From assembly GCA_029912145.1 (NCBI GenBank), contig GCA_029912145.1_4350.1: a stretch of DNA of 44,747 bases. One strand, 5' to 3'. This DNA is from Escherichia coli. Its GTDB lineage: Bacteria > Pseudomonadota > Gammaproteobacteria > Enterobacterales > Enterobacteriaceae. Both the position numbers and the translations under genes were made by a program. This document shows, one piece after another, positions 5,411 to 36,842 of this stretch (its first letter is position 1; the number at the start of each line of letters is the position of its first letter). Below the pieces are notes generated by a model. It did not search any database. It was not told the origin of the DNA and saw nothing but the letters and a program-made list of their open reading frames with translations.

Positions 5411-5734
5411 CTAACTATAATAGTTCGCTATTAGGGCGTCAACCTGTTTAAACGAACCAACGACAAAAACATTAGCACCACGCTTACGCATCCGCTCGTG
5501 CTCCCGTAACTGGTGTGGATCCGGCTTCGTGCTTTCGTCTTTCTTTATCTCGACGAACCAGATGACGCCGCCGGGGAGAATTACCAGCAGGTCAGGGGCG
5601 CCGGAACGTCCTTCGTAGGAAAGTTTACGAACGAGGCCACCAATGGCCTCGAATCGGTCTTTTGCGTATTTCTGTATTTTGCCCTCAGGCGTACTCATCC
5701 ACACACCCCTCACGTTTCGTATGCGCAATACCAC
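5411..5734 (-). CDS. VRR-NUC domain nuclease (PD-(D/E)XK fold)
   Basis: PDLLV...VEIK core motif characteristic of VRR-NUC; sits beside the DNA polymerase gene. Confidence 0.8.
   Translation of the reverse strand: MVLRIRNVRGVWMSTPEGKIQKYAKDRFEAIGGLVRKLSYEGRSGAPDLLVILPGGVIWFVEIKKDESTKPDPHQLREHERMRKRGANVFVVGSFKQVDALIANYYS
5414..5442 (-). promoter_or_regulatory. Sigma70-like promoter, leftward: -35 TTGACG, 17 bp spacer, -10 TATAGT, with the dyad AATAG-N4-CTATT inside the spacer
   Basis: Motif read directly; it overlaps the last codons of the VRR-NUC gene; same architecture as the sites near 9.2 kb and 12.1 kb. Confidence 0.5.
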
Positions 5735-9179: not shown

Positions 9180-9208
9180 ACTATAATAGCTAACTATTCA
9201 GGTGTCAA
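9180..9208 (-). promoter_or_regulatory. Sigma70-like promoter, leftward: -35 TTGACA, 17 bp spacer, -10 TATAGT, dyad AATAG-CTAA-CTATT in the spacer
   Basis: Read directly; overlaps the 3-prime end of the 9194-9427 gene. Confidence 0.5.
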
Positions 9209-12072: not shown

Positions 12073-12102
12073 ACTATAATAGCGAACTATTCATGATGTC
12101 AA
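12073..12102 (-). promoter_or_regulatory. Sigma70-like leftward promoter: -35 TTGACA, 18 bp spacer, -10 TATAGT, dyad AATAG-CGAA-CTATT in the spacer
   Basis: Read directly in the divergent intergenic region 12045-12166. Confidence 0.55.
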
Positions 12103-15752: not shown

Positions 15753-15781
15753 TTGCACACCCCAACATAATAGGGTACTAT
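15753..15781 (+). promoter_or_regulatory. Early-type promoter: -35 TTGCAC, 17 bp spacer, -10 TACTAT(TCA), with dyad AATAG-GGTA-CTATT
   Basis: Read directly, about 30 bp upstream of the first rightward gene. Confidence 0.6.
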
Positions 15782-15815
15782 TCACTTATCGAAACGAGAC
15801 AGAGGAGTGAGGGTT

Positions 15816-23869: not shown

Positions 23870-25354
23870 ATGTTAACTATGAACGGTCAGAATCAGGGTG
23901 TTAAGACAAAACACCGGGAATGGCTGCACCACTTCGATAAATGGCAGAAGGTGCGCCACGCGCTGGAAGGCGACCTTATCCGCTATCTGCGCAACGTTGG
24001 GAAGAATGAGCCGGACCCGACCTACGCGGCACAGCGCCAGGAAGAATACGAGAACGGCGCTATCTGTTACAACTTCACCAAGAGAACGCTGGCGGGGATG
24101 GTCGGCAGTGTCATGCGCAAAGACCCCGAGCAGATTATACCGCCTGAACTGGAGTACCTGTTACGTAACGCGGACGGTTCTGGTGTCGGGCTGTGGCAGC
24201 ACGCACAGGATACGCTAATGGAGATTGATTCGGTGGGTCGTGGCGGGTTGCTGGTGGACGCCCCGGAGACAGCCGCGGCAACGGCAGCCGAACAGAACGC
24301 GGGGTTACTAAACCCGGTCATTGCATTCTACACTGCTGAGAACATCATCAACTGGCGACTGACCCGCATCGGCTCAGTGAACCGTGTGACGATGGTCGTG
24401 TTACGTGAGGTGTGGGAATACTCAGAACCAAGTGCAGAGTTCGAAACAAAGTTCGGTGAACAATACCGCGTTCTCGATTTGATTGACGGGCGCTACCGCC
24501 AGCGAATCTATCGCTTCGATGCCGAAGGTGGCGCTCAGGATGATGTAATCGAAATATTCCCGGAACTTGGCGAACAGTTACGGGGCAAAATCCCGTTCAC
24601 GTTCATTGGGGCAAGCAACAACGATGCGACCATTGATGATGCACCTTTGCTGCCGCTTGCTGAACTAAACATAGGACATTTCCGCAACAGCGCAGACAAT
24701 GAGGAGTCCAGTTTCGTTGTAGGTCAGCCAACTCTGTTCATCGCCCCGGGTGAGAACATGAGCATGGAACAGTGGAAAGAAGCCAACCCACACGGCGTGC
24801 GCATGGGGTCGCGTTCAGGCCATAACATTGGTTACGGCGGCAATGCGTTTCTGGTTCAGGCAGGAGAGAACAACCTCGCCAAGCAGAACATGCTGGATAA
24901 AGAGAATCAGGCCATCCAGATTGGCGCGCAGCTTATCACCCCGACGCAGCAAATCACCGCTGAATCGGCACGGCTGCAACGCGGCGCGGATACGTCCGTT
25001 ATGGCGACAATCGCACGTAACGTAAGCATGGCATATACCGATGCGTTGCGCTGGGTGGCTGCGATGCTAGGGTTGCGTGAAGGTACAGAGGTTGAGTTCA
25101 AGCTGAATATGGAGTTCTTCCTGCAACCAATGACCGCTCAGGACCGCGCCCAGTGGATGGCGGATATTAACGCTGGCCTGTTACCGGCTACAGCTTACTA
25201 TGCGGTATTGCGTAAGGCGGGCGTAACGGACTGGACGGACGAAGACATTCAGAACGCTATCGAGGATGCGCCTCTGCCTATGGGCGCGGTTACCCAGGTA
25301 GCAGGGGAGATTCCTGCTACAGCAAGACAGGAACAGGATGCCACTCAGCAGTAA
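23870..25354 (+). CDS. Portal protein
   Basis: 494 aa ORF between terminase and head-morphogenesis genes; RBS AAGAGG. Confidence 0.8.
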   Translation: MLTMNGQNQGVKTKHREWLHHFDKWQKVRHALEGDLIRYLRNVGKNEPDPTYAAQRQEEYENGAICYNFTKRTLAGMVGSVMRKDPEQIIPPELEYLLRNADGSGVGLWQHAQDTLMEIDSVGRGGLLVDAPETAAATAAEQNAGLLNPVIAFYTAENIINWRLTRIGSVNRVTMVVLREVWEYSEPSAEFETKFGEQYRVLDLIDGRYRQRIYRFDAEGGAQDDVIEIFPELGEQLRGKIPFTFIGASNNDATIDDAPLLPLAELNIGHFRNSADNEESSFVVGQPTLFIAPGENMSMEQWKEANPHGVRMGSRSGHNIGYGGNAFLVQAGENNLAKQNMLDKENQAIQIGAQLITPTQQITAESARLQRGADTSVMATIARNVSMAYTDALRWVAAMLGLREGTEVEFKLNMEFFLQPMTAQDRAQWMADINAGLLPATAYYAVLRKAGVTDWTDEDIQNAIEDAPLPMGAVTQVAGEIPATARQEQDATQQ

Positions 25355-25364
25355 GCTCACATAT

Positions 25365-25385
25365 AGCCCCGAAAGGGGCTTTCTT
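25365..25385 (+). terminator. Rho-independent terminator after the portal gene (AGCCCC-GAAA-GGGGCT followed by TTCTT)
   Basis: Read directly. Confidence 0.55.
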
Positions 25386-25423
25386 ATAGTATGCTATTAA
25401 CTTTAACGCCACAGGGTTTATCT

Positions 25424-26467
25424 ATGAGCTTACTTACATCATTAATCAGCCACCAGATATGGTTGCAACGCACCGCATCCGGTGAGGTGAAAGACCTCGC
25501 GCCGTTCATTCAGGAAATGCGGGACGAAATCAAACGGCAGGTGCTGTTATTCGGTGACGACGGGCGTAGCACCGCGCGACTGAATAAACTGTTACGCGAC
25601 CTTGAAGAAGCACTGGTGGGGCTTACGGGCGACTGGCAGACAAAGCTGACAGAAGACCTTAAGGAACTGGCGGCGTATGAGGCCGAGTGGAACGTAAAGA
25701 CACTGACCGCCAACGTAGCTGCGGAATTTGTTACACCTACCGCTGAACAGGTGTGGGCTGCTGCCGAGTTTCAACCGTTATCGTTGAGCGACAAGCCTGT
25801 TGACTTCACTAAGCTGATGTCAGGTTGGGGTGAAACCGAAGTCGCGCGCCTGGTAACGGGTGTTAAGATGGGCTTTGTTCAGGGTAAGACAACACGGCAG
25901 ATTGTTACAGAAGTAGTCGGTAAAGGCGGGCTGGCTGACGTATCAGAGAAATACGCCGCTACCGTAATCCGCACTGCGCTGTCTCACGTGTCCAACGAAG
26001 CCCGCAATGAAACATACCGCCAGAACGACGATATCATCGAGAAGTACGAATGGGTGTCAACGCTGGACAGCCGTACCAGTACGATTTGCAGGGCCAGAGA
26101 CGGGATGATGTGGGAAATCGGTAAAGGGCCAATGCCGCCAGCCCATCCGAATTGTCGGTCGTGCACAGCTCCGGTAATCAGTTCAGAGTTCGACTTCCTC
26201 GATAAAGGCGCAAAACGGGCGGCTAAGGGTGCAGATGGCGGTACTCAGGTAAACGCGGACACCACTTATTACGAGTTTCTGAAACAACAACCGGCGTGGT
26301 TTCAGGACCAGGCGCTCGGCCCGGTGCGAGGTAAGATTTTCCGTAACAGCGGTATATCGCCGGAAGAGTTTCGCGTAATATCTGTAGATGGTTTCGGGAA
26401 TCCGCTCACGCTTAAGCAGATGGCGGAACTCGATAAACGTGTTGCTGATTATCTGAAAGGGGATTAA
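25424..26467 (+). CDS. Head morphogenesis protein (Mu gpF / SPP1 gp7-like)
   Basis: HPNCRSCTAPV motif typical of the gp7/MuF family; follows the portal gene. Confidence 0.8.
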   Translation: MSLLTSLISHQIWLQRTASGEVKDLAPFIQEMRDEIKRQVLLFGDDGRSTARLNKLLRDLEEALVGLTGDWQTKLTEDLKELAAYEAEWNVKTLTANVAAEFVTPTAEQVWAAAEFQPLSLSDKPVDFTKLMSGWGETEVARLVTGVKMGFVQGKTTRQIVTEVVGKGGLADVSEKYAATVIRTALSHVSNEARNETYRQNDDIIEKYEWVSTLDSRTSTICRARDGMMWEIGKGPMPPAHPNCRSCTAPVISSEFDFLDKGAKRAAKGADGGTQVNADTTYYEFLKQQPAWFQDQALGPVRGKIFRNSGISPEEFRVISVDGFGNPLTLKQMAELDKRVADYLKGD

Positions 26468-26469
26468 CG

Positions 26470-26928
26470 ATGGGCTTTTTCAAAGTAACTGATGTACCGT
26501 CGCGCCGTGTAGTCCAGTACGCCCGAGTGTCTGGCTCTGGCGAGAACGTGGTGTTTATTAGGGATGAAAGTGTACTCGGTACACCAGTAGACGATATGCC
26601 GTTTGCGGATAAGACTGGCATCGCACTTCCTGCGGCGGGCATGCTTTACGAGATTCCGTATCTGGCTGATGCTGGCGACGTGTATTTCTCTGCACAACCA
26701 CAGGACGCTGAACTGGCAGACGGCAGCGCAACTATCACTGTAGAGGTTAAAGCCGGTAAAGCACCATATGCTCTGACCTGGTACAAAGACGGCAAGGAAG
26801 TGGTAAATGCGCCCGAAGAGGCTTTGTCTCTGACGGTTAACGCAGTTGGTGAATACTTCGTTAAGGTTACTGATGCCGATAGGGTAGAGGCTGTGAGTAA
26901 AGCGGCGAAGGTCACTAAGCCCGAATGA
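26470..26928 (+). CDS. Head-associated protein with C-terminal Ig-like domain (152 aa)
   Basis: C-terminal PYALTWYKDGKEV...GEYFVKVTD resembles Ig-like domains; shares this with the 30320-30661 gene. Confidence 0.5.
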   Translation: MGFFKVTDVPSRRVVQYARVSGSGENVVFIRDESVLGTPVDDMPFADKTGIALPAAGMLYEIPYLADAGDVYFSAQPQDAELADGSATITVEVKAGKAPYALTWYKDGKEVVNAPEEALSLTVNAVGEYFVKVTDADRVEAVSKAAKVTKPE

Positions 26929-26932
26929 TAGA

Positions 26933-26961
26933 AGGCCCCTTTAAGGGGCCTTAGTTTATTT
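26933..26961. terminator. Terminator hairpin between convergent genes (AGGCCCC-TTTA-AGGGGCCT followed by a T-rich tract)
   Basis: Read directly. Confidence 0.55.
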
Positions 26962-27240
26962 CTTTCCTAATGCTTTCTCGATTGCTCTTTTTGCCAGATT
27001 TAATGGATGGTCCTCATGGTAATCATCGGAAGATACCGCGCAAACATCCTCGACGTAATCGCGAAGCTGGCGAAGTGCTTCAAGTAACTCTGGTGCAGAG
27101 GAAATAAGCTTTGCGTTAGCCAATTTTACTGAGTCATTTTCCCTCATACTCATTACCTCCGCCACATAAACATCACCCGCCCAGATAGCCGTTTCGCAAT
27201 TAACCCATGTACCGTCTGTACCTTTAAATTTGTGTGTCAT
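26956..27240 (-). CDS. Antisense moron gene, hypothetical protein (94 aa)
   Basis: ATG at 27240 with RBS AGGAG; own TTGCAC-type promoter upstream and terminator downstream; opposite strand to the surrounding head genes. Confidence 0.6.
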   Translation of the reverse strand: MTHKFKGTDGTWVNCETAIWAGDVYVAEVMSMRENDSVKLANAKLISSAPELLEALRQLRDYVEDVCAVSSDDYHEDHPLNLAKRAIEKALGKK

Positions 27241-27267
27241 TTTGCATCTCCTGTTTAAGTTAACTGA

Positions 27268-27296
27268 ATAGTACCCTATTATATTGGTGTGTGCAA
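27268..27296 (-). promoter_or_regulatory. Early-type promoter on the minus strand: -35 TTGCAC, 17 bp spacer, -10 TACTAT(TCA), dyad AATAG-GGTA-CTATT
   Basis: Near-identical to the 15753 site. Confidence 0.6.
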
Positions 27297-27348
27297 ACTA
27301 TTTATTTACGTATTCCAGTTATTCCACTCAATTGTAAATGTTGGAATA

Positions 27349-27364
27349 AACTATTCGAATAGTT
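27349..27364. repeat. Perfect 16 bp palindrome AACTATTCGAATAGTT, abutting a TTGACT -35-like hexamer
   Basis: Read directly; built from the same GAATAG/CTATTC half-site as the promoter dyads. Confidence 0.6.
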
Positions 27365-27391
27365 GACTTTTCACTGAAAATGTGCTAAGCT
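27363..27391 (+). promoter_or_regulatory. Candidate promoter: -35 TTGACT, 17 bp spacer, extended -10 TGcTAAGCT
   Basis: Read directly; the -10 is only moderate. Confidence 0.4.
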
Positions 27392-27410
27392 CCACCTGAG
27401 CTTGTGAAGT

Positions 27411-27521
27411 ATGAACAAGCGACCGCGGCGCGGGCAGGTAACGGAGCGGGACGTAAGTCCTGAGTGTAGTTACGCTGACGCGTTCGGAAGGGCCATACTC
27501 TATTGCTTGTGTAAAAAGTAA
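27411..27521 (+). CDS. Possible small basic peptide (36 aa, MNKRPRRGQV...), or part of a noncoding RNA; not in the ORF track
   Basis: ATG-initiated ORF between promoter and terminator; weak RBS. Confidence 0.2.
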   Translation: MNKRPRRGQVTERDVSPECSYADAFGRAILYCLCKK

Positions 27522-27571
27522 CTGGTTTACTGAGATTACGCCGTTTCTATGTTTAAATGATAAGGACTAGC

Positions 27572-27598
27572 GCCCCGCTTTATGGCGGGGCTTTACTT
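27572..27598 (+). terminator. Rho-independent terminator or attenuator immediately upstream of the Rz-like gene (GCCCCGC-TTTATG-GCGGGGC followed by TTTACTT)
   Basis: Read directly; ends about 10 nt before the Rz RBS. Confidence 0.55.
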
Positions 27599-27616
27599 AT
27601 CGAGAAAGGGGGAAAC

Positions 27617-28003
27617 ATGAATCTTAAAGCAACTGTCGTAGCAGGAGCATGTTTCATCATCCTGGCTTACGCCCACGGCATTTACCAGTATCGCAGCGGC
27701 TGGAGCGAAGGCCGGGCGAATCTCGTTTCGCAGCAACAGCAGAAAGCGCAGGCTGAGTTAGCGAAGAAAACACAACGGCAGCAGCAGGACGAATCAAAGG
27801 CCGCCGCCGCTGACAACGAAGGCAAGACGAAATCAGAGGTGATTACCCGTGAAGTCGTTAAGTACATTAAAACGCCTGGTCGCAGCGTGTGCACTTTTGA
27901 CGATGCTCGCGTCCTGCTCAAGTCCCGCGCCGTCGCCAACGCCAATTCCATCTCCGGATACGACGATGATGCAGCCGCCGTGCAAGCTGGCGCCACCAAG
28001 TAG
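27617..28003 (+). CDS. Inner-membrane spanin (i-spanin, Rz-like)
   Basis: N-terminal transmembrane segment (ATVVAGACFIILAYA), Gln/Ala-rich coiled coil, periplasmic C-terminus; RBS AAGGGGGA. Confidence 0.7.
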   Translation: MNLKATVVAGACFIILAYAHGIYQYRSGWSEGRANLVSQQQQKAQAELAKKTQRQQQDESKAAAADNEGKTKSEVITREVVKYIKTPGRSVCTFDDARVLLKSRAVANANSISGYDDDAAAVQAGATK

Positions 28004-28112
28004 TGACGCGGACGAGGATTTAGCTATCGACGTTCAGAACGCCGAATGCGTACGGCAACTGAGACTGAAAGTGTTCATGTTGCAGGATTACGTGAGGAAT
28101 ATTCTGGAATAG
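27849..28112 (+). CDS. Outer-membrane lipoprotein spanin (o-spanin, Rz1-like), overlapping the 3-prime end of the i-spanin gene in the +1 frame
   Basis: Signal peptide with lipobox LASC followed by a Pro-rich mature region; overlapped architecture extending past the Rz stop. Confidence 0.65.
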   Translation: MKSLSTLKRLVAACALLTMLASCSSPAPSPTPIPSPDTTMMQPPCKLAPPSSDADEDLAIDVQNAECVRQLRLKVFMLQDYVRNILE

Positions 28113-28194
28113 TTGCCTTGCATGTTGGAATAATTTATTCTTGACATGTAAATCCGGGTGGCCCGGATTCCAACGTCCAGGGGACATACTGACT

Positions 28195-28896
28195 ATGAAT
28201 CGTTTTTTACGTTATCCGTTCCAGGAAGAAGCTGGAGCAGAAGATAAAGCTGGTGGCGGTGACGCTCCTAAAATGTTCACCGCTGAAGAAGTTCAGGCGC
28301 TGATTGAGAAAGAAGTTGCCGGGCTTAAGGCCAATCAGGAAGCATTGCTGGCGGAGAAGAAAGAAGCCGCCCGTAAAGCAAAAGAGGCCGAAGAAGAACG
28401 GCAGCGTGCGCACCAGGAGGCGTTAAAGGCCGCCGGTAAGATGGACGAGTTTGAAAAGACGATTCGTAGCCAGTATGACCCGGTGTTAGCCGAGAAAGAT
28501 GGCCGCATCTCCAAAATGGCAGAGCGCATCCTCGGCAGCGAACGTAAAGCGGTGCTAGGCTCTTTCGCGGGTGACTTTATTACCCCGGAAGCAGTGGACA
28601 TCCTTGCGCCGTTCGTTAAGACTGAGTTCGAAGGTGATGATGTGGTTACTAAGTTTGTCGGCGCAGACGGTAACGTAATCACGACTGACCCGGAACAGTT
28701 CCGCAAATACCTGCGCGAACACAAAGCGTTTTCGCATTTGATTAAAGCAAATGCAGCTTCCGGCGGCGGGGCTTCCGGTGGCAAAGGCGGCGGGGCCGCA
28801 CCAGTGTTTAAAGACATGAGTGAAGCAGAGCGTTTAGCCCTGTATAAATCGAACCCTGCCGAATTTGAACGGCAACTTAAAGCCCTGAGGAAATAA
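28195..28896 (+). CDS. Scaffolding protein (putative)
   Basis: Ala/Glu/Lys-rich coiled-coil sequence, directly upstream of the major capsid gene. Confidence 0.6.
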   Translation: MNRFLRYPFQEEAGAEDKAGGGDAPKMFTAEEVQALIEKEVAGLKANQEALLAEKKEAARKAKEAEEERQRAHQEALKAAGKMDEFEKTIRSQYDPVLAEKDGRISKMAERILGSERKAVLGSFAGDFITPEAVDILAPFVKTEFEGDDVVTKFVGADGNVITTDPEQFRKYLREHKAFSHLIKANAASGGGASGGKGGGAAPVFKDMSEAERLALYKSNPAEFERQLKALRK

Positions 28897-28898
28897 TA

Positions 28899-29954
28899 AT
28901 GGCAATTACCACTATCGGCGATATCGTAACTGGCAACATCCCGGTCCTGGCGTCTTATATGACCGAGGACCCGGTAGAAAAAACCGCGTTCTTCCAGTCT
29001 GGTATTCTCACCCCGACCCCATACGCCGCCGAGATTGCCCGCGGCCCGTCCAACGTCGCTAATATTCCTTTCTGGAAAGCGATTGATACCTCTATCGAGC
29101 CGAACTACTCGAACGACGTATACCAGGACATCGCCACCCCGCGTAACGTGCAGACCGGCGAGATGATGGCGCGCGTTGCGTACCTGAACGAAGGTTTCGG
29201 TCAGGCGGATTTGACCGTTGAACTGACCAGCCAGAACCCGCTGCAATCCGTAGCGTCACGTCTGGATAACTTCTGGCAGCGTCAGGCACAACGCCGTCTG
29301 ATTGCTACCGCGCTCGGGCTGTACAATGACAACGTAGCCGCTACCGACGCATACCACGAGCAGAAGGACATGGTAATCGACGTGTCTGCTACTCTGGGCT
29401 TCGATGCGGGCGCGTTCATCGACGCTACCCAGACTATGGGCGATGCTCTGATGGGCAACGGCGGTGAAGTGCTGGGGGCTATCGCGATGCATAGCTTCGT
29501 TTATGCGCAGGCACGTAAGCAGCAGCTTATCGACTTCATCCGTGACGCGGACAACAACACCATGTTCGCCACCTACCAGGGCTACCGCGTGATTGTTGAC
29601 GACAGCATGACCGTAGTCGGCACTGGCCCGACCCGTAAGTTCATCTCCATCATCTTCGGCAACGGCGCTATCGGTTACGGTGAAGGTTCTCCGTCCAACC
29701 CGCTGGAATACGAGCGCGAAGCGTCCCGCGGCAACGGCGGCGGCGTTGAAACCCTGTGGACCCGTAAGACCTGGTTGCTACATCCGTTTGGTTACAGCTT
29801 CACCAGTGCAGTAATCACTGGCAACGGCACCGAGACTACCCCGCGCTCTGCTTCCTGGCAGGACCTGGCGAACGCCTCCAACTGGAACCGTGTGGTTGAC
29901 CGCAAGCACGTACCGATTGCCTTCCTGGTAACTGGTGTCGGTGCTCAAGGTTAA
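28899..29954 (+). CDS. Major capsid protein
   Basis: 351 aa ORF after the scaffold gene, followed by a strong terminator; positional and compositional inference. Confidence 0.75.
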   Translation: MAITTIGDIVTGNIPVLASYMTEDPVEKTAFFQSGILTPTPYAAEIARGPSNVANIPFWKAIDTSIEPNYSNDVYQDIATPRNVQTGEMMARVAYLNEGFGQADLTVELTSQNPLQSVASRLDNFWQRQAQRRLIATALGLYNDNVAATDAYHEQKDMVIDVSATLGFDAGAFIDATQTMGDALMGNGGEVLGAIAMHSFVYAQARKQQLIDFIRDADNNTMFATYQGYRVIVDDSMTVVGTGPTRKFISIIFGNGAIGYGEGSPSNPLEYEREASRGNGGGVETLWTRKTWLLHPFGYSFTSAVITGNGTETTPRSASWQDLANASNWNRVVDRKHVPIAFLVTGVGAQG

Positions 29955-34343: not shown

Positions 34344-34347
34344 AACT

Positions 34348-34373
34348 AAGGCCCCTTTCGGGGCCTTTTTCTT
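34348..34373. terminator. Bidirectional terminator between the major tail gene and the antisense cassette (AAGGCCCC-TTTC-GGGGCCTT with T-rich tracts on both sides)
   Basis: Read directly. Confidence 0.65.
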
Positions 34374-34926
34374 ACAAACCTAATTTTAAAGCAATGTCTA
34401 TAACGTTCGATTTAACGTCACCCGGTATGATGTAGGTGTCGTAATCTTTTACACCACTAACATCATACAGATAGCCACGGCTATCGCCGATGAACGTATA
34501 GCCGTCACGATGGAGGCGAACGATTTGCACGTCATGCCCTGCGGCGACGATAGGGGCAACTTCACTGGCGAATCCACCGTCGGACACTACAAAAACTTCG
34601 TCGCCGTCAGGCAAGTTTTCAGCAAGATACTTACCGAAATAATCATCGCCGAATACCGGTTTAATGAATTGCTCAGAAATGGCAATCATTAACTGGCGGC
34701 GGGACAACCCATTAAGAAAACCCTCGGGTTTTTCTTTCCGCGCCCGGTCGTCGTAGCCGTCGAGAAATTCGTGGTAAGCATCCTGGCCTAACGCTGCCAA
34801 AGCAATATTGAACATTGGATTCTTGAAACTGGTAGTTCCTTTCGCAAAGCCCATTTCTACCAGCGCCATAGCAAGCGTGTCTTTCCCGCAACCCGCAGGG
34901 CCATTAAGAATAATTACCTTAGCCAT
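34372..34926 (-). CDS. P-loop nucleotide/polynucleotide kinase (dNMP-kinase-like)
   Basis: Walker A GPAGCGKDT near the N-terminus; 184 aa; last gene of the antisense cassette. Confidence 0.65.
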   Translation of the reverse strand: MAKVIILNGPAGCGKDTLAMALVEMGFAKGTTSFKNPMFNIALAALGQDAYHEFLDGYDDRARKEKPEGFLNGLSRRQLMIAISEQFIKPVFGDDYFGKYLAENLPDGDEVFVVSDGGFASEVAPIVAAGHDVQIVRLHRDGYTFIGDSRGYLYDVSGVKDYDTYIIPGDVKSNVIDIALKLGL

Positions 34927-35414
34927 TATTTATCGCTCCCGTGTGGTTTTAAGTGTGTAGAGTTCCCGTTACAGTCGTATTCGGTAACTGCGTGTGCGGT
35001 TATGCCGAGGTCACGGAAATGCTTTATTACCGCTGGAGAGTCGTCGAACGCACACAAGATTCTTTCCAGTCCGAAAGCACGCAACACCTCTTCTTTAATT
35101 ACGATGTCTTTTCTGTTGTCGTGTTTGCTGCGCATGATTAGCGTGTCAAACCTAACGTTATTTTCTCGTAACCATTCGCGAGTCTCCTCCTCAGCGTCAT
35201 CACTTCGCCCGGTAAGGATAATTATAGTAAGTCCGGAATGCCACAGTACGCTACACAAATGGATATTGTCGTATATCGGAGCGTCATCTTTGCAGGCCAT
35301 GTTAAATGGCTTCCACGCCCACGTTTCTCCGTAGTTATCTTTTGGTAACAGGTGTAAGCGATGGGTACCGTCGGCCAATGTCCCGTCTAAATCGAAAATT
35401 ACAATATCTTTCAT
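34926..35414 (-). CDS. HAD-superfamily phosphatase resembling the 3-prime-phosphatase domain of T4 polynucleotide kinase
   Basis: N-terminal DxDGT motif (IVIFDLDGTLA) and downstream segments resembling the T4 Pnk phosphatase domain as recalled; 162 aa; not alignment-verified. Confidence 0.65.
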   Translation of the reverse strand: MKDIVIFDLDGTLADGTHRLHLLPKDNYGETWAWKPFNMACKDDAPIYDNIHLCSVLWHSGLTIIILTGRSDDAEEETREWLRENNVRFDTLIMRSKHDNRKDIVIKEEVLRAFGLERILCAFDDSPAVIKHFRDLGITAHAVTEYDCNGNSTHLKPHGSDK

Positions 35415-36541
35415 CCCAGCATCTCCGGTGAAATAGTTAAACGTGCGACCTCGCCATATTCGGCGCTATAAGTAATTACATTTGCACTGCGGCCCGACAT
35501 CCATCCGCCGCGAGAGGCGTAGGCGTCTTTAGCCGCTAAGGTGCGGTGTTGCTCAACAATCATGTTACGGCTTTCTACAATCTTCTGGTGGTGCAGATGG
35601 CCTACGTGGGCGTAGCTGTAAACACTCTCGCCGAACGCTTTACGGAACTTGGCAATCATAACCGGTTCGATAGCGTCGAATCGTGCTTTATGCCCGTGAT
35701 GGAAGAACAGCGTCGTTTTGCCGTGTTGCACCATCTTGTAAACATCCGGCGACGTATCGACGAATACACGAGGCTCGTTGTCGTACAGTGTGCTGAACAT
35801 CTCCGCCAGCCAAATCATCCCGGATTCGTCGTGGTTCCCCTGAACTATAAGCAAGCGAACAGTTTTATGCTTAACCAGAGCCATATCAACAACACGGCGG
35901 ACCATGCGAATCATGTAGCGGACAAGTTTCTGGTAACGCGTGTCGGCGTCAAGGACATGACCACTCGCCGGTGTAACGGCGTCAAGACTATCGAAGTGAG
36001 CTAAGTCGCCAAGAAGATTAATAACCCCCGTACCTGCATCCGGTGCTTTCTGAAACGCAGCATCAAGCCAACGAGAGAATAAGTCCTCCGCGATTTTCAT
36101 ATCCCAGTCGTCGCCGCTCTCGTCAGCCCAGGCTAACATACCGAGATGGAAATCAGATACCGTGTAAAGATTGAGTAGTTTATCGTCACGTTTGGCTCGT
36201 GCCGGTTTAACAGGCGCAACGGGCGTAATCTCTGACTTCATGCCCTCTATTACGGCTTTCATCAATTCAACCTGACGTTCGGCATCAGCGTCGGTCTTAA
36301 CCCATTGCAACTTAGTGTTGCCGAACTCGTCCACCAGGGACGACGTTCCTTTAATCTTGTAACCGTCTGGTACAAGGTGACTAACGTCGCGCCCGTGGCC
36401 TACGCCTTTCTTAGCCAGCTTCGCTTTACGGATTCGGATAACGCGGTCTGAGATTCCGTATTTACGGGCGATATCGATATTCTTCATCCCGGCGTTCAAT
36501 TCTTCCTGTAATTGCTCGTCGGTTATTTTCTTCTGGGCCAT
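35411..36541 (-). CDS. Metallophosphoesterase (calcineurin-like, Mre11/SbcD-type motifs) with N-terminal HTH-like segment
   Basis: Motifs DFHLG, GDLAHFD, GNHDE, GHLHH; start at the internal ATG (36541) with RBS GAGGAA; track ORF extends to 36646. Confidence 0.7.
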   Translation of the reverse strand: MAQKKITDEQLQEELNAGMKNIDIARKYGISDRVIRIRKAKLAKKGVGHGRDVSHLVPDGYKIKGTSSLVDEFGNTKLQWVKTDADAERQVELMKAVIEGMKSEITPVAPVKPARAKRDDKLLNLYTVSDFHLGMLAWADESGDDWDMKIAEDLFSRWLDAAFQKAPDAGTGVINLLGDLAHFDSLDAVTPASGHVLDADTRYQKLVRYMIRMVRRVVDMALVKHKTVRLLIVQGNHDESGMIWLAEMFSTLYDNEPRVFVDTSPDVYKMVQHGKTTLFFHHGHKARFDAIEPVMIAKFRKAFGESVYSYAHVGHLHHQKIVESRNMIVEQHRTLAAKDAYASRGGWMSGRSANVITYSAEYGEVARLTISPEMLG

Positions 36542-36579
36542 GCTTACTTCCTCGTGTTTAGGATTTGTCTTATAGTAGC

Positions 36580-36771
36580 CTACTTCTCTTTCACGTTCGA
36601 GTTGCAAGCCCAGATTAAAATGAATACCCACGGCAACAGAATCCACCCGAGAAATAAGTTAGCCATGAATATCGCCAGCTTTGCTTTATGGTTACGCATA
36701 TGTGCCACCAAAAACGGGATAAAATAAACGGCTACAAAAATAATTAAGAAGAACATAGTGATACCGGTCAT
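36580..36771 (-). CDS. Superinfection-immunity (Imm)-like small membrane protein
   Basis: Motif RNHKAKLAIFMANLFLGWILLPWVFILIWA matches the Imm-superinfection family signature as recalled; RBS AGGAG before ATG at 36771. Confidence 0.55.
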   Translation of the reverse strand: MTGITMFFLIIFVAVYFIPFLVAHMRNHKAKLAIFMANLFLGWILLPWVFILIWACNSNVKEK

Positions 36772-36813
36772 AACATAACTCCTGATTTGAGATAACATCG
36801 TTGGTGTAAGTGA

Positions 36814-36842
36814 ATAGTACGCTATTATATTGGGGAGTGCAA
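36814..36842 (-). promoter_or_regulatory. Early-type promoter on the minus strand driving the cassette: -35 TTGCAC, 17 bp spacer, -10 TACTAT(TCA), dyad AATAG-CGTA-CTATT
   Basis: Near-identical to the 15753, 16865 and 27296 sites. Confidence 0.6.

Follow-up and report, generated by a model that had tools for sequence, protein, structure and literature searches.

What a single gene transcribed backwards is doing in the middle of a phage head gene cluster is the question raised by this locus, which lies in a stretch of 44,747 nucleotides deposited as an Escherichia coli contig (the window, meaning here always the whole stretch). A preliminary description had seen there an antisense moron of 94 aa with an early-type promoter and a terminator of its own, self-contained, horizontally acquired and of a kind that often encodes anti-defence or host-modulating functions. 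The reading arrived at here, in which we have fairly good confidence, is that of a moron-type accessory cassette, a swappable antisense unit that would be expressed early or in the middle of infection and the product of which would be a protein-binding modulator. The 1.8 kb around the cassette matched 337 phage records at about 92-95% identity, nearly all of them Escherichia or Salmonella siphophages of the Kagunavirus/Guernseyvirinae type, and by this likeness the source phage is identified as a Kagunavirus-like (Guernseyvirinae) siphophage, of a virulent group; for the Kagunavirus fBC-Eco01 no lysogeny genes were reported (PMC9825357). The head cluster and the cassette within it are laid out as follows.

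23870-25354, plus strand: portal, by family assignment
25391-26467, plus strand: Mu-F-like head morphogenesis gene (PF04233)
26470-26928, plus strand: Hoc-like head-decoration protein (phrog_3945)
26932-26952, both strands: GC-rich hairpin AAGGCCCC-TTT-AAGGGGCCTT found by the structure scan, left edge of the cassette
26956-27240, minus strand: 94-aa ORF with ATG start, stop codon included (PF27050 / phrog_1273)
27248-27252, minus strand: Shine-Dalgarno sequence AGGAG, in a 5'UTR type that in relatives is kept before unrelated cargo
27261-27296, minus strand: promoter-like element, TTGCAC (27296-27291), a 17-nt spacer and TACTAT (27273-27268), right edge of the cassette
27557-28112, plus strand: Rz/Rz1-type spanin pair, the spanins from about 27617, with the o-spanin embedded and a lipobox LASC
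28141-28896, plus strand: scaffold
28899-29954, plus strand: major capsid protein

As had been noticed at the outset, the 94-aa ORF is the only minus-strand gene among the plus-strand head genes and has an AGGAG; this stands 7 nt upstream of the ATG. The ORF is poorer in GC than the window as a whole (43.5% against 50.8%), and its GC3 is 39% where neighbouring genes have 49-70%; judged on composition and codon conservation the gene is real and foreign-looking. That it might be a chance ORF, as its short length and a scan that detected no consensus promoter could suggest, is barely credible. All 94 codons are intact in each of five orthologues, among which dN/dS is 0.12-0.26, well below 1 (one further low-divergence pair gives 0.70, and the Hoc-like gene 0.04-0.06), and these ratios indicate that the ORF is under purifying selection. 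Its AF2 model is confident, and homologues number 127 at E<=1e-3 in a word-indexed search and 20,129 clusters in a profile search; by homologue counts and dN/dS together the chance-ORF reading is already effectively refuted. A 45-aa plus-strand ORF inside the gene (26970-27107) was set aside as a presumed shadow ORF. Compared with the four orthologues the window allele carries R15C, G16E, K35N and C75Y at positions that these otherwise share, and with C75Y one Cys is lost from a C-x7-C-H-x2-H-like pattern that many, though not all, members of the enterobacterial subgroup have; R15C, G16E and C75Y are unusual, and the window protein could be a weakened allele. The orthologue of EF2-1 (L001, 1526-1810; PQ571290.1, EF2-1_gp32) is annotated as 'Efflux RND transporter permease subunit', a name that is plainly wrong for a soluble protein of 94 aa.

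Whether such a gene belongs to the fixed equipment of these phages can be judged from relatives, and a comparison to see if the position is variable had been proposed earlier. Forty IMG/VR loci were fetched through the Hoc-like protein and three annotated GenBank relatives were added, the slot being taken as the sequence from the Hoc stop codon to the highly conserved block upstream of the spanins. Among 41 loci this Hoc/spanin slot proved hypervariable. Eight have it empty, with 57 bp holding a plain terminator (AGCCCC-GAAA-GGGGCT-TTTT) and no promoter, and in 33 it is filled with 222-885 bp. The minus-strand promoter is kept in 31 of the 33 filled slots (at most five mismatches over its 33 nt), always equally far from the right edge; the left-hand hairpin, too, recurs in nearly all of them, and between promoter and hairpin at least 15 unrelated antisense cargo families are found. 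The commonest alternative cargo is a 173-aa beta-clamp-like protein (phrog_3007, 8 loci); a 67-aa protein occupies 4 loci, that of the BASEL phage Bas74 included, and the 94-aa family is present in the window, in L014 and in L031, with a variant in L044. Others are N6/N4 DNA methyltransferases of 242-246 aa (PF01555, 1.8e-29), HNH/endonuclease-VII-like proteins, a 114-aa lipoprotein, small membrane proteins and several orphans.

Alignment with Bas74 places the breaks: homology runs through promoter, 5'UTR and RBS to the start codon, and resumes at the hairpin after the stop. Two 5'UTR variants are shuffled relative to the cargo, the 173-aa gene occurring with both and with a hybrid, which indicates crossovers inside the flanks. 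Absence from close relatives had been put forward beforehand as something that would speak against the gene. Most relatives do lack it, having either an empty slot or another antisense gene, but absence from most relatives is the very definition of an accessory gene and so is no argument against function. Together with the boundaries and the deviant GC it supports the earlier view of a self-contained, horizontally mobile unit.

The cassette is also found in a second place. In EF2-1 and K-02 an orthologue (84-88% amino acid identity) lies antisense between the portal and head-morphogenesis genes, within the same 365-bp cassette of hairpin, ORF and promoter (88-90% nucleotide identity), and alignment across the two slots gives limits of 26932 to about 27297-27307, nearly the 26930-27300 that was first proposed for the unit. 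The window's own portal/F gap (25355-25390) is empty, holding a terminator-like hairpin only (25363-25382). Over 43 loci the portal/F slot is filled in 16 and empty in 27, the filling coming mostly with the same promoter and hairpin (loci listed: L001, L002, L011, L018-L020, L024, L026, L027, L030, L034, L038, L040, L042, L045). Eight cargo families occupy both slots in different phages, at 62-98% amino acid identity, and a three-gene cassette sits in the Hoc slot of L020 and in the portal slot of L011 (93-98%); since these families are common to both slots, cargo moves between phages as well as between slots. Among other portal/F cargo, L045 has a CapR/zinc-ribbon protein, L030 a KilA-N-like protein, and L018 a 244-aa protein with a Vut_1 (YhhQ-like) transporter, a pairing that may resemble 7-deazaguanine DNA-modification modules.

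How the gene would be expressed turns on the element at the right edge. TTGCAC-N17-TACTAT is indeed there, as first read, and nearly all relatives whose slot is filled have kept it. With no more than 7 of 12 positions agreeing with the sigma-70 consensus, and no call by the consensus scan, the promoter is weak by consensus, but it is far from chance since it is repeated in the window and conserved whatever gene follows. A 33-nt version occurs three times in the window against none expected, and the copies at 15753, 27261 and 36807 are near-identical over 33-36 nt. The two further copies, and the sites of a palindrome contained in them, are these.

15753-15788, plus strand: second promoter copy, heading an operon of small ORFs (from 15.8 kb)
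36807-36842, minus strand: third promoter copy, heading an antisense Imm-like and phosphoesterase module inside the tail genes
5418-5433, 9184-9198, 12077-12091, 15768-15782, 27267-27281 and 36813-36827: sites of the palindrome TAATAGnnnnCTATT

Within the element of the cassette the palindromic core is TAATAGGGTACTATT (27281-27267), and the six sites of TAATAGnnnnCTATT in the window compare with none expected. The other three sites, outside the repeated element, belong to replication-module promoters close to consensus (TTGACA-N17-TATAGT), where the palindrome is turned the other way with respect to transcription; it thus spans two promoter classes and both orientations. A published analysis of fBC-Eco01 with PHIRE counted the motif seven times and assigned it to an RNA polymerase of the phage (PMC9825357). 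We rather favour an operator at which a dimeric phage regulator would bind, placed over host-type promoters, because no RNA polymerase was found among the ten large ORFs of the window that were scanned (DNA polymerase A, SNF2 helicase, C5 methylase, PD-(D/E)XK/DUF2800, Enc34-type ssDNA-binding protein and tape measure included); for the same reason transcription is presumably by the host polymerase. The label early-type, given to the promoter at the start, fits, the promoter being common to the small-ORF operon at 15.8 kb and to the Imm-like superinfection-immunity module. The cassette is probably co-regulated with early or middle genes, and from this shared regulon we infer that its gene is made early or mid-infection.

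The antisense module within the tail genes (34372-36842, minus strand) is delimited by a copy of the promoter (36807-36842) and by a hairpin of the cassette's family (34347-34367). Its first gene codes for an Imm_superinfect-family membrane protein (36580-36771, minus strand; PF14373, 1.3e-13); also encoded are a HAD/PNKP-type phosphatase, a metallophosphoesterase-like protein of 377 aa and a further protein, of 184 aa, the N-terminus of which, GPAGCGKDT, looks by eye like a P-loop and has no family match. By its gene content the module may be an RNA or DNA end-repair set.

At the left edge the terminator hairpin claimed downstream of the gene is present, directly 3' of the 94-aa stop codon and conserved among relatives, but is only a candidate terminator of that gene: the scan scores the plus strand, that of the Hoc-like gene, and the minus-strand U-tract (CUAUCAUUC) is weak. 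On the scan score and on this tract in the window, the hairpin is best read as a shared bidirectional terminator for the convergent Hoc-like (plus strand) and 94-aa (minus strand) genes. In about 30 relatives it takes the form AAGGCCCC-loop-GGGGCCTTAGTTTTA, the stem invariant and the loop free to vary, and in K-02 the stem carries a compensatory change, CCCC/GGGG to CCTC/GAGG. The same hairpin family also occurs at 2175, 8448 and 34347 in the window. A good plus-strand terminator for the Hoc-like gene, in a slot lying between two transcription units of the head genes (with a plus-strand promoter-like site next at 27364-27392), might mean that the coding sequence is incidental and that antisense promoter and terminator serve to insulate or tune the head genes, for example by transcriptional interference or by blocking Hoc-spanin read-through. 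Such a purpose is very improbable, given that 8 of the 41 relatives do with a simple terminator, without promoter and cargo, that the ORF is under purifying selection and that its family runs to about 20,000 clusters.

The cassette has counterparts in several described systems. With the morons of lambdoid and HK97-like phages (Juhala, Hendrix; PMC3594210) it shares an extra gene set between genes that are directly adjacent in relatives, here the eight loci with an empty slot, a promoter of its own (on sequence evidence from about 30 relatives, with a weak consensus match) and a putative terminator, a deviant base composition in both GC and GC3, and horizontal spread. Classical morons typically act for the good of the lysogen, being expressed while the prophage is repressed, whereas the phage group here is virulent, and the cassette promoter is one of the phage's own repeated promoters, common to lytic-cycle operons, and not a foreign one. 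Because the group is virulent the cassette is no classical lysogen-benefiting moron.

The PeSL cassettes of T4-type phages (PMC2839356; Comeau et al. 2014, PMC4122927) resemble it in that a repeated early sigma-70-like promoter and a stem-loop flank non-essential ORFs, in that close relatives differ by insertions, deletions and replacements whose ends fall within the repeated motifs, and in their occasional location inside virion modules. In the present phages, likewise, the hairpin on one side and the start codon or 5'UTR on the other mark where homology stops, and the UTR variants are shuffled. A PeSL, however, is one composite promoter and stem-loop motif, with about 50 per genome and tandem arrays (PMC2839356, PMC4122927), whereas here the promoter (27261-27296) and the GC hairpin (26932-26952) stand at opposite ends of a single antisense unit, and only a 5-bp AT-rich palindrome overlaps the -10. 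There are only three promoter copies (six with the palindrome) and about four hairpins in this 44-kb siphovirus, and PeSL mini-circles would not be expected from its non-repeated flanks. As promoter and stem-loop are not one composite motif the cassette is not a PeSL by definition; by analogy its cargo exchange would work like the PeSL-mediated shuffling of T4-type phages.

The 'accessory regions' described by Silas et al. (bioRxiv 10.1101/2023.04.06.535777) in related enterobacteriophages consist of variable non-essential genes bracketed by conserved core genes and are enriched for counter-defence genes. The slot answers to this, its unrelated cargo families lying between the Hoc-like gene and the pre-spanin block. 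Their definition is statistical and silent on promoter and terminator flanks and on cargo moving between two slots. The cassette is thus of a known kind, extended by two promoter- and hairpin-marked slots and by a very large uncharacterised family.

Of that family more can be said than before, and the statement that the protein has no recognisable motif is outdated. It matches phrog_1273 at 5.5e-17, an identical database protein had already been assigned to PF27050, and the sequence homology search proposed earlier thereby gave a family. PF27050 is named Phage_P22_Y8K6 and all 120 homologues listed were pre-assigned to it; orf78 of phage P22 (P22gp42; 78 aa, about 8.6 kDa), which matches the family profile at 3.6e-12, is evidently its founder. 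The profile search, run at E<=1e-3 over 1.84 billion representatives, gave clusters that are nearly all stand-alone proteins of 85-120 aa, and inspection of the top 150 hits for fusions found only tandem duplications of the same domain and no fusion with other domains. The family motifs are an N-terminal FKGTxGxW, a middle of variable length (the beta region), a helix NAxLIAAAPELLEAL (given for the window protein as NAKLIxxAPELLEAL) and a C-terminal AIxKALG, with W12, P50 and K89 invariant in a diverse sample. P22 orf78 has the AAPELLEAL helix and an AIGKALG C-terminus and is likewise a small stand-alone gene in an early operon; it differs in its 78 aa without the FKGTxGxW N-terminal motif and in lying in the PL operon and not in a solo antisense cassette. 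Among enterobacterial phages identity stays at 70-88% or more over the C-terminal 55 residues, the N-terminal halves having diverged (phage Skate is an example), and this pattern points to intragenic mosaicism.

The AlphaFold2 model (pLDDT 83.4) has a three-stranded beta meander followed by three helices, and the predicted properties are those of a soluble, mildly acidic protein (10.5 kDa, pI 5.3, GRAVY -0.38); the sequence, read by eye and with no dedicated predictor, has no obvious signal peptide, lipobox or hydrophobic segment. NCBIfam and PADLOC gave no function for the 94-aa protein. A local Pfam copy, which is without the PF27050 model, gave no matches for it and no meaningful ones for 45 diverse members, and PDB sequences gave no real match in single-sequence and profile searches, only one spurious secretin match. 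As regards known anti-defence families, the structure and family searches returned no similarity to a solved structure or named family, and no nucleic-acid-binding or enzymatic motif was found. The literature holds no published function under PF27050/phrog_1273, the motif strings, P22 orf78 or the Y8K6 name, nor do the supplementary files of Silas et al. hold a trace of motif or protein. A homing endonuclease was rejected (no nuclease motif, 94 aa), as were a toxin-antitoxin system (a single gene) and a virion component (absent from most relatives).

The places that family members take in other genomes bear on what they may do. In P22 the early-left (PL) operon has orf78 with ral on one side and gene 17 on the other. 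In lambdoid prophage contigs a member is found directly between kilR and gam/recT or erf/ssb, in two metagenomic phages one follows a primase-polymerase gene, and at divergent promoter regions of Swiduovirus swi2 and Skatevirus Skate the homologue comes first, ahead of a DNA-binding protein and a beta-clamp-like gene. All these outside contexts are, going by their gene content, early regions rich in host-modulating genes. An anti-defence or host-modulating role, of which the preliminary description spoke, is plausible through guilt by association, from the methyltransferase slot-mates and from early operons near ral, kil and gam; tentatively, an early soluble protein-binding modulator acting in counter-defence or host takeover may be taken as the most likely role.

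Two other functions draw on the same neighbourhoods. The early-left region of P22 also has sieB and thus immunity- and exclusion-related genes, a lipoprotein, typical of exclusion proteins, is among the slot-mates in relatives, and another copy of the promoter drives the Imm_superinfect-family membrane protein, all of which would suit a factor of inter-phage competition or superinfection exclusion, made early against a second infecting phage and not against host immunity. This is unlikely. Known injection-blocking exclusion proteins are envelope-associated, and the 94-aa protein, by its sequence and GRAVY, has nothing obvious that would take it there; moreover the family members of temperate phages are in the PL operon, which is silent in lysogens, and so the family cannot protect a lysogen. 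An accessory factor of phage recombination or replication, such as a modulator of RecBCD, SSB or the phage annealase, is suggested by the neighbours gam/recT, erf/ssb and the primase-polymerase gene, by the DNA-binding and beta-clamp-like genes that follow in swi2 and Skate, and by the beta-clamp-like protein being the commonest alternative cargo of the slot. Yet here the gene is a solo cassette far from replication genes, most close relatives lack it and replicate normally, and the protein showed neither nucleic-acid-binding nor enzymatic motifs, so that such a factor is quite improbable.

For the moron-type accessory cassette, the preferred reading, the parts may be put together as follows. 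A conserved promoter for host RNA polymerase, a conserved 5'UTR with its RBS, the 94-aa ORF and the GC-rich hairpin would make up the cassette, and the gap between two head transcription units would let it be transcribed backwards without disrupting them. Both the Hoc/spanin and the portal/head-morphogenesis gaps would act as sockets in which promoter and hairpin are constant and the ORF is exchanged, by homologous recombination in the short regulatory flanks and the adjacent core genes. The PD-(D/E)XK nuclease (DUF2800) and the Enc34-type ssDNA-binding protein could support such short-homology recombination, but quite how an empty slot is first entered is not explained by flank homology alone, as empty slots have no promoter. 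The promoter regulon, with its three copies and six palindrome sites, would drive small early ORFs, replication genes and the Imm-like module. In the protein a conserved N-terminal GPW beta-hairpin and a C-terminal helical scaffold would surround a hypervariable insert, and the product would bind a host or rival-phage protein rather than be an enzyme or a part of the virion.

A broader proposition, rather doubtful as a whole, joins two ideas, namely that the promoter and hairpin flanks are a portable 'expression socket' in Guernseyvirinae and that the P22-orf78-like family is a counter-defence or host-takeover class. Were both so, any ORF could be plugged into either safe-harbour gap of the head cluster under one palindrome-controlled regulon, and the family, with its roughly 20,000 clusters, would form a wide class so far overlooked, in which a conserved scaffold displays a hypervariable specificity insert. 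The slot rule of promoter plus hairpin offers a way to harvest accessory genes from Kagunavirus and Jersey-like genomes, of which there are hundreds; no other class is so enriched for counter-defence functions. A function for a family present even in P22 would extend by annotation to thousands of genes, and phage engineers have in the slots natural payload sites within the structural module, which take up to about 1.5 kb in relatives and bring an expression signal ready-made.

Some further features of the neighbourhood were observed. In L010, L022, L031, L035, L036, L038, L039, L041 and L042 the head-morphogenesis gene starts about 700-900 bp farther from the Hoc-like gene than it does in the window, which is consistent with an intein, as annotated in the head-morphogenesis gene of fEg-Eco06 and reported for phage Snoke; the window gene has no such insert. 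The spanin pair between the head-decoration and scaffold genes is at an unusual site for lysis genes, away from any obvious holin or endolysin in the window. Upstream of it the non-coding block 27300-27620 (plus strand) is 97-99% identical in more than 150 phage records, above the conservation of its flanking genes, and Rfam gave no match within 26000-28500. The block holds an extended -10-like promoter, TTGACT-N17-(TGc)TAAGCT (27364-27392), then a structured, GC-rich leader and, close upstream of the i-spanin start, a terminator-like hairpin (27572-27591), in which the pair 27576/27587 shows CG to UA covariation in three sequences. The predicted RNA of about 190 nt that ends at this terminator resembles lambda PR'-6S-tR' (Q antitermination) or a put-like RNA, and relatives annotate a 36-aa ORF within the block that matches 27300-27620 of the window.
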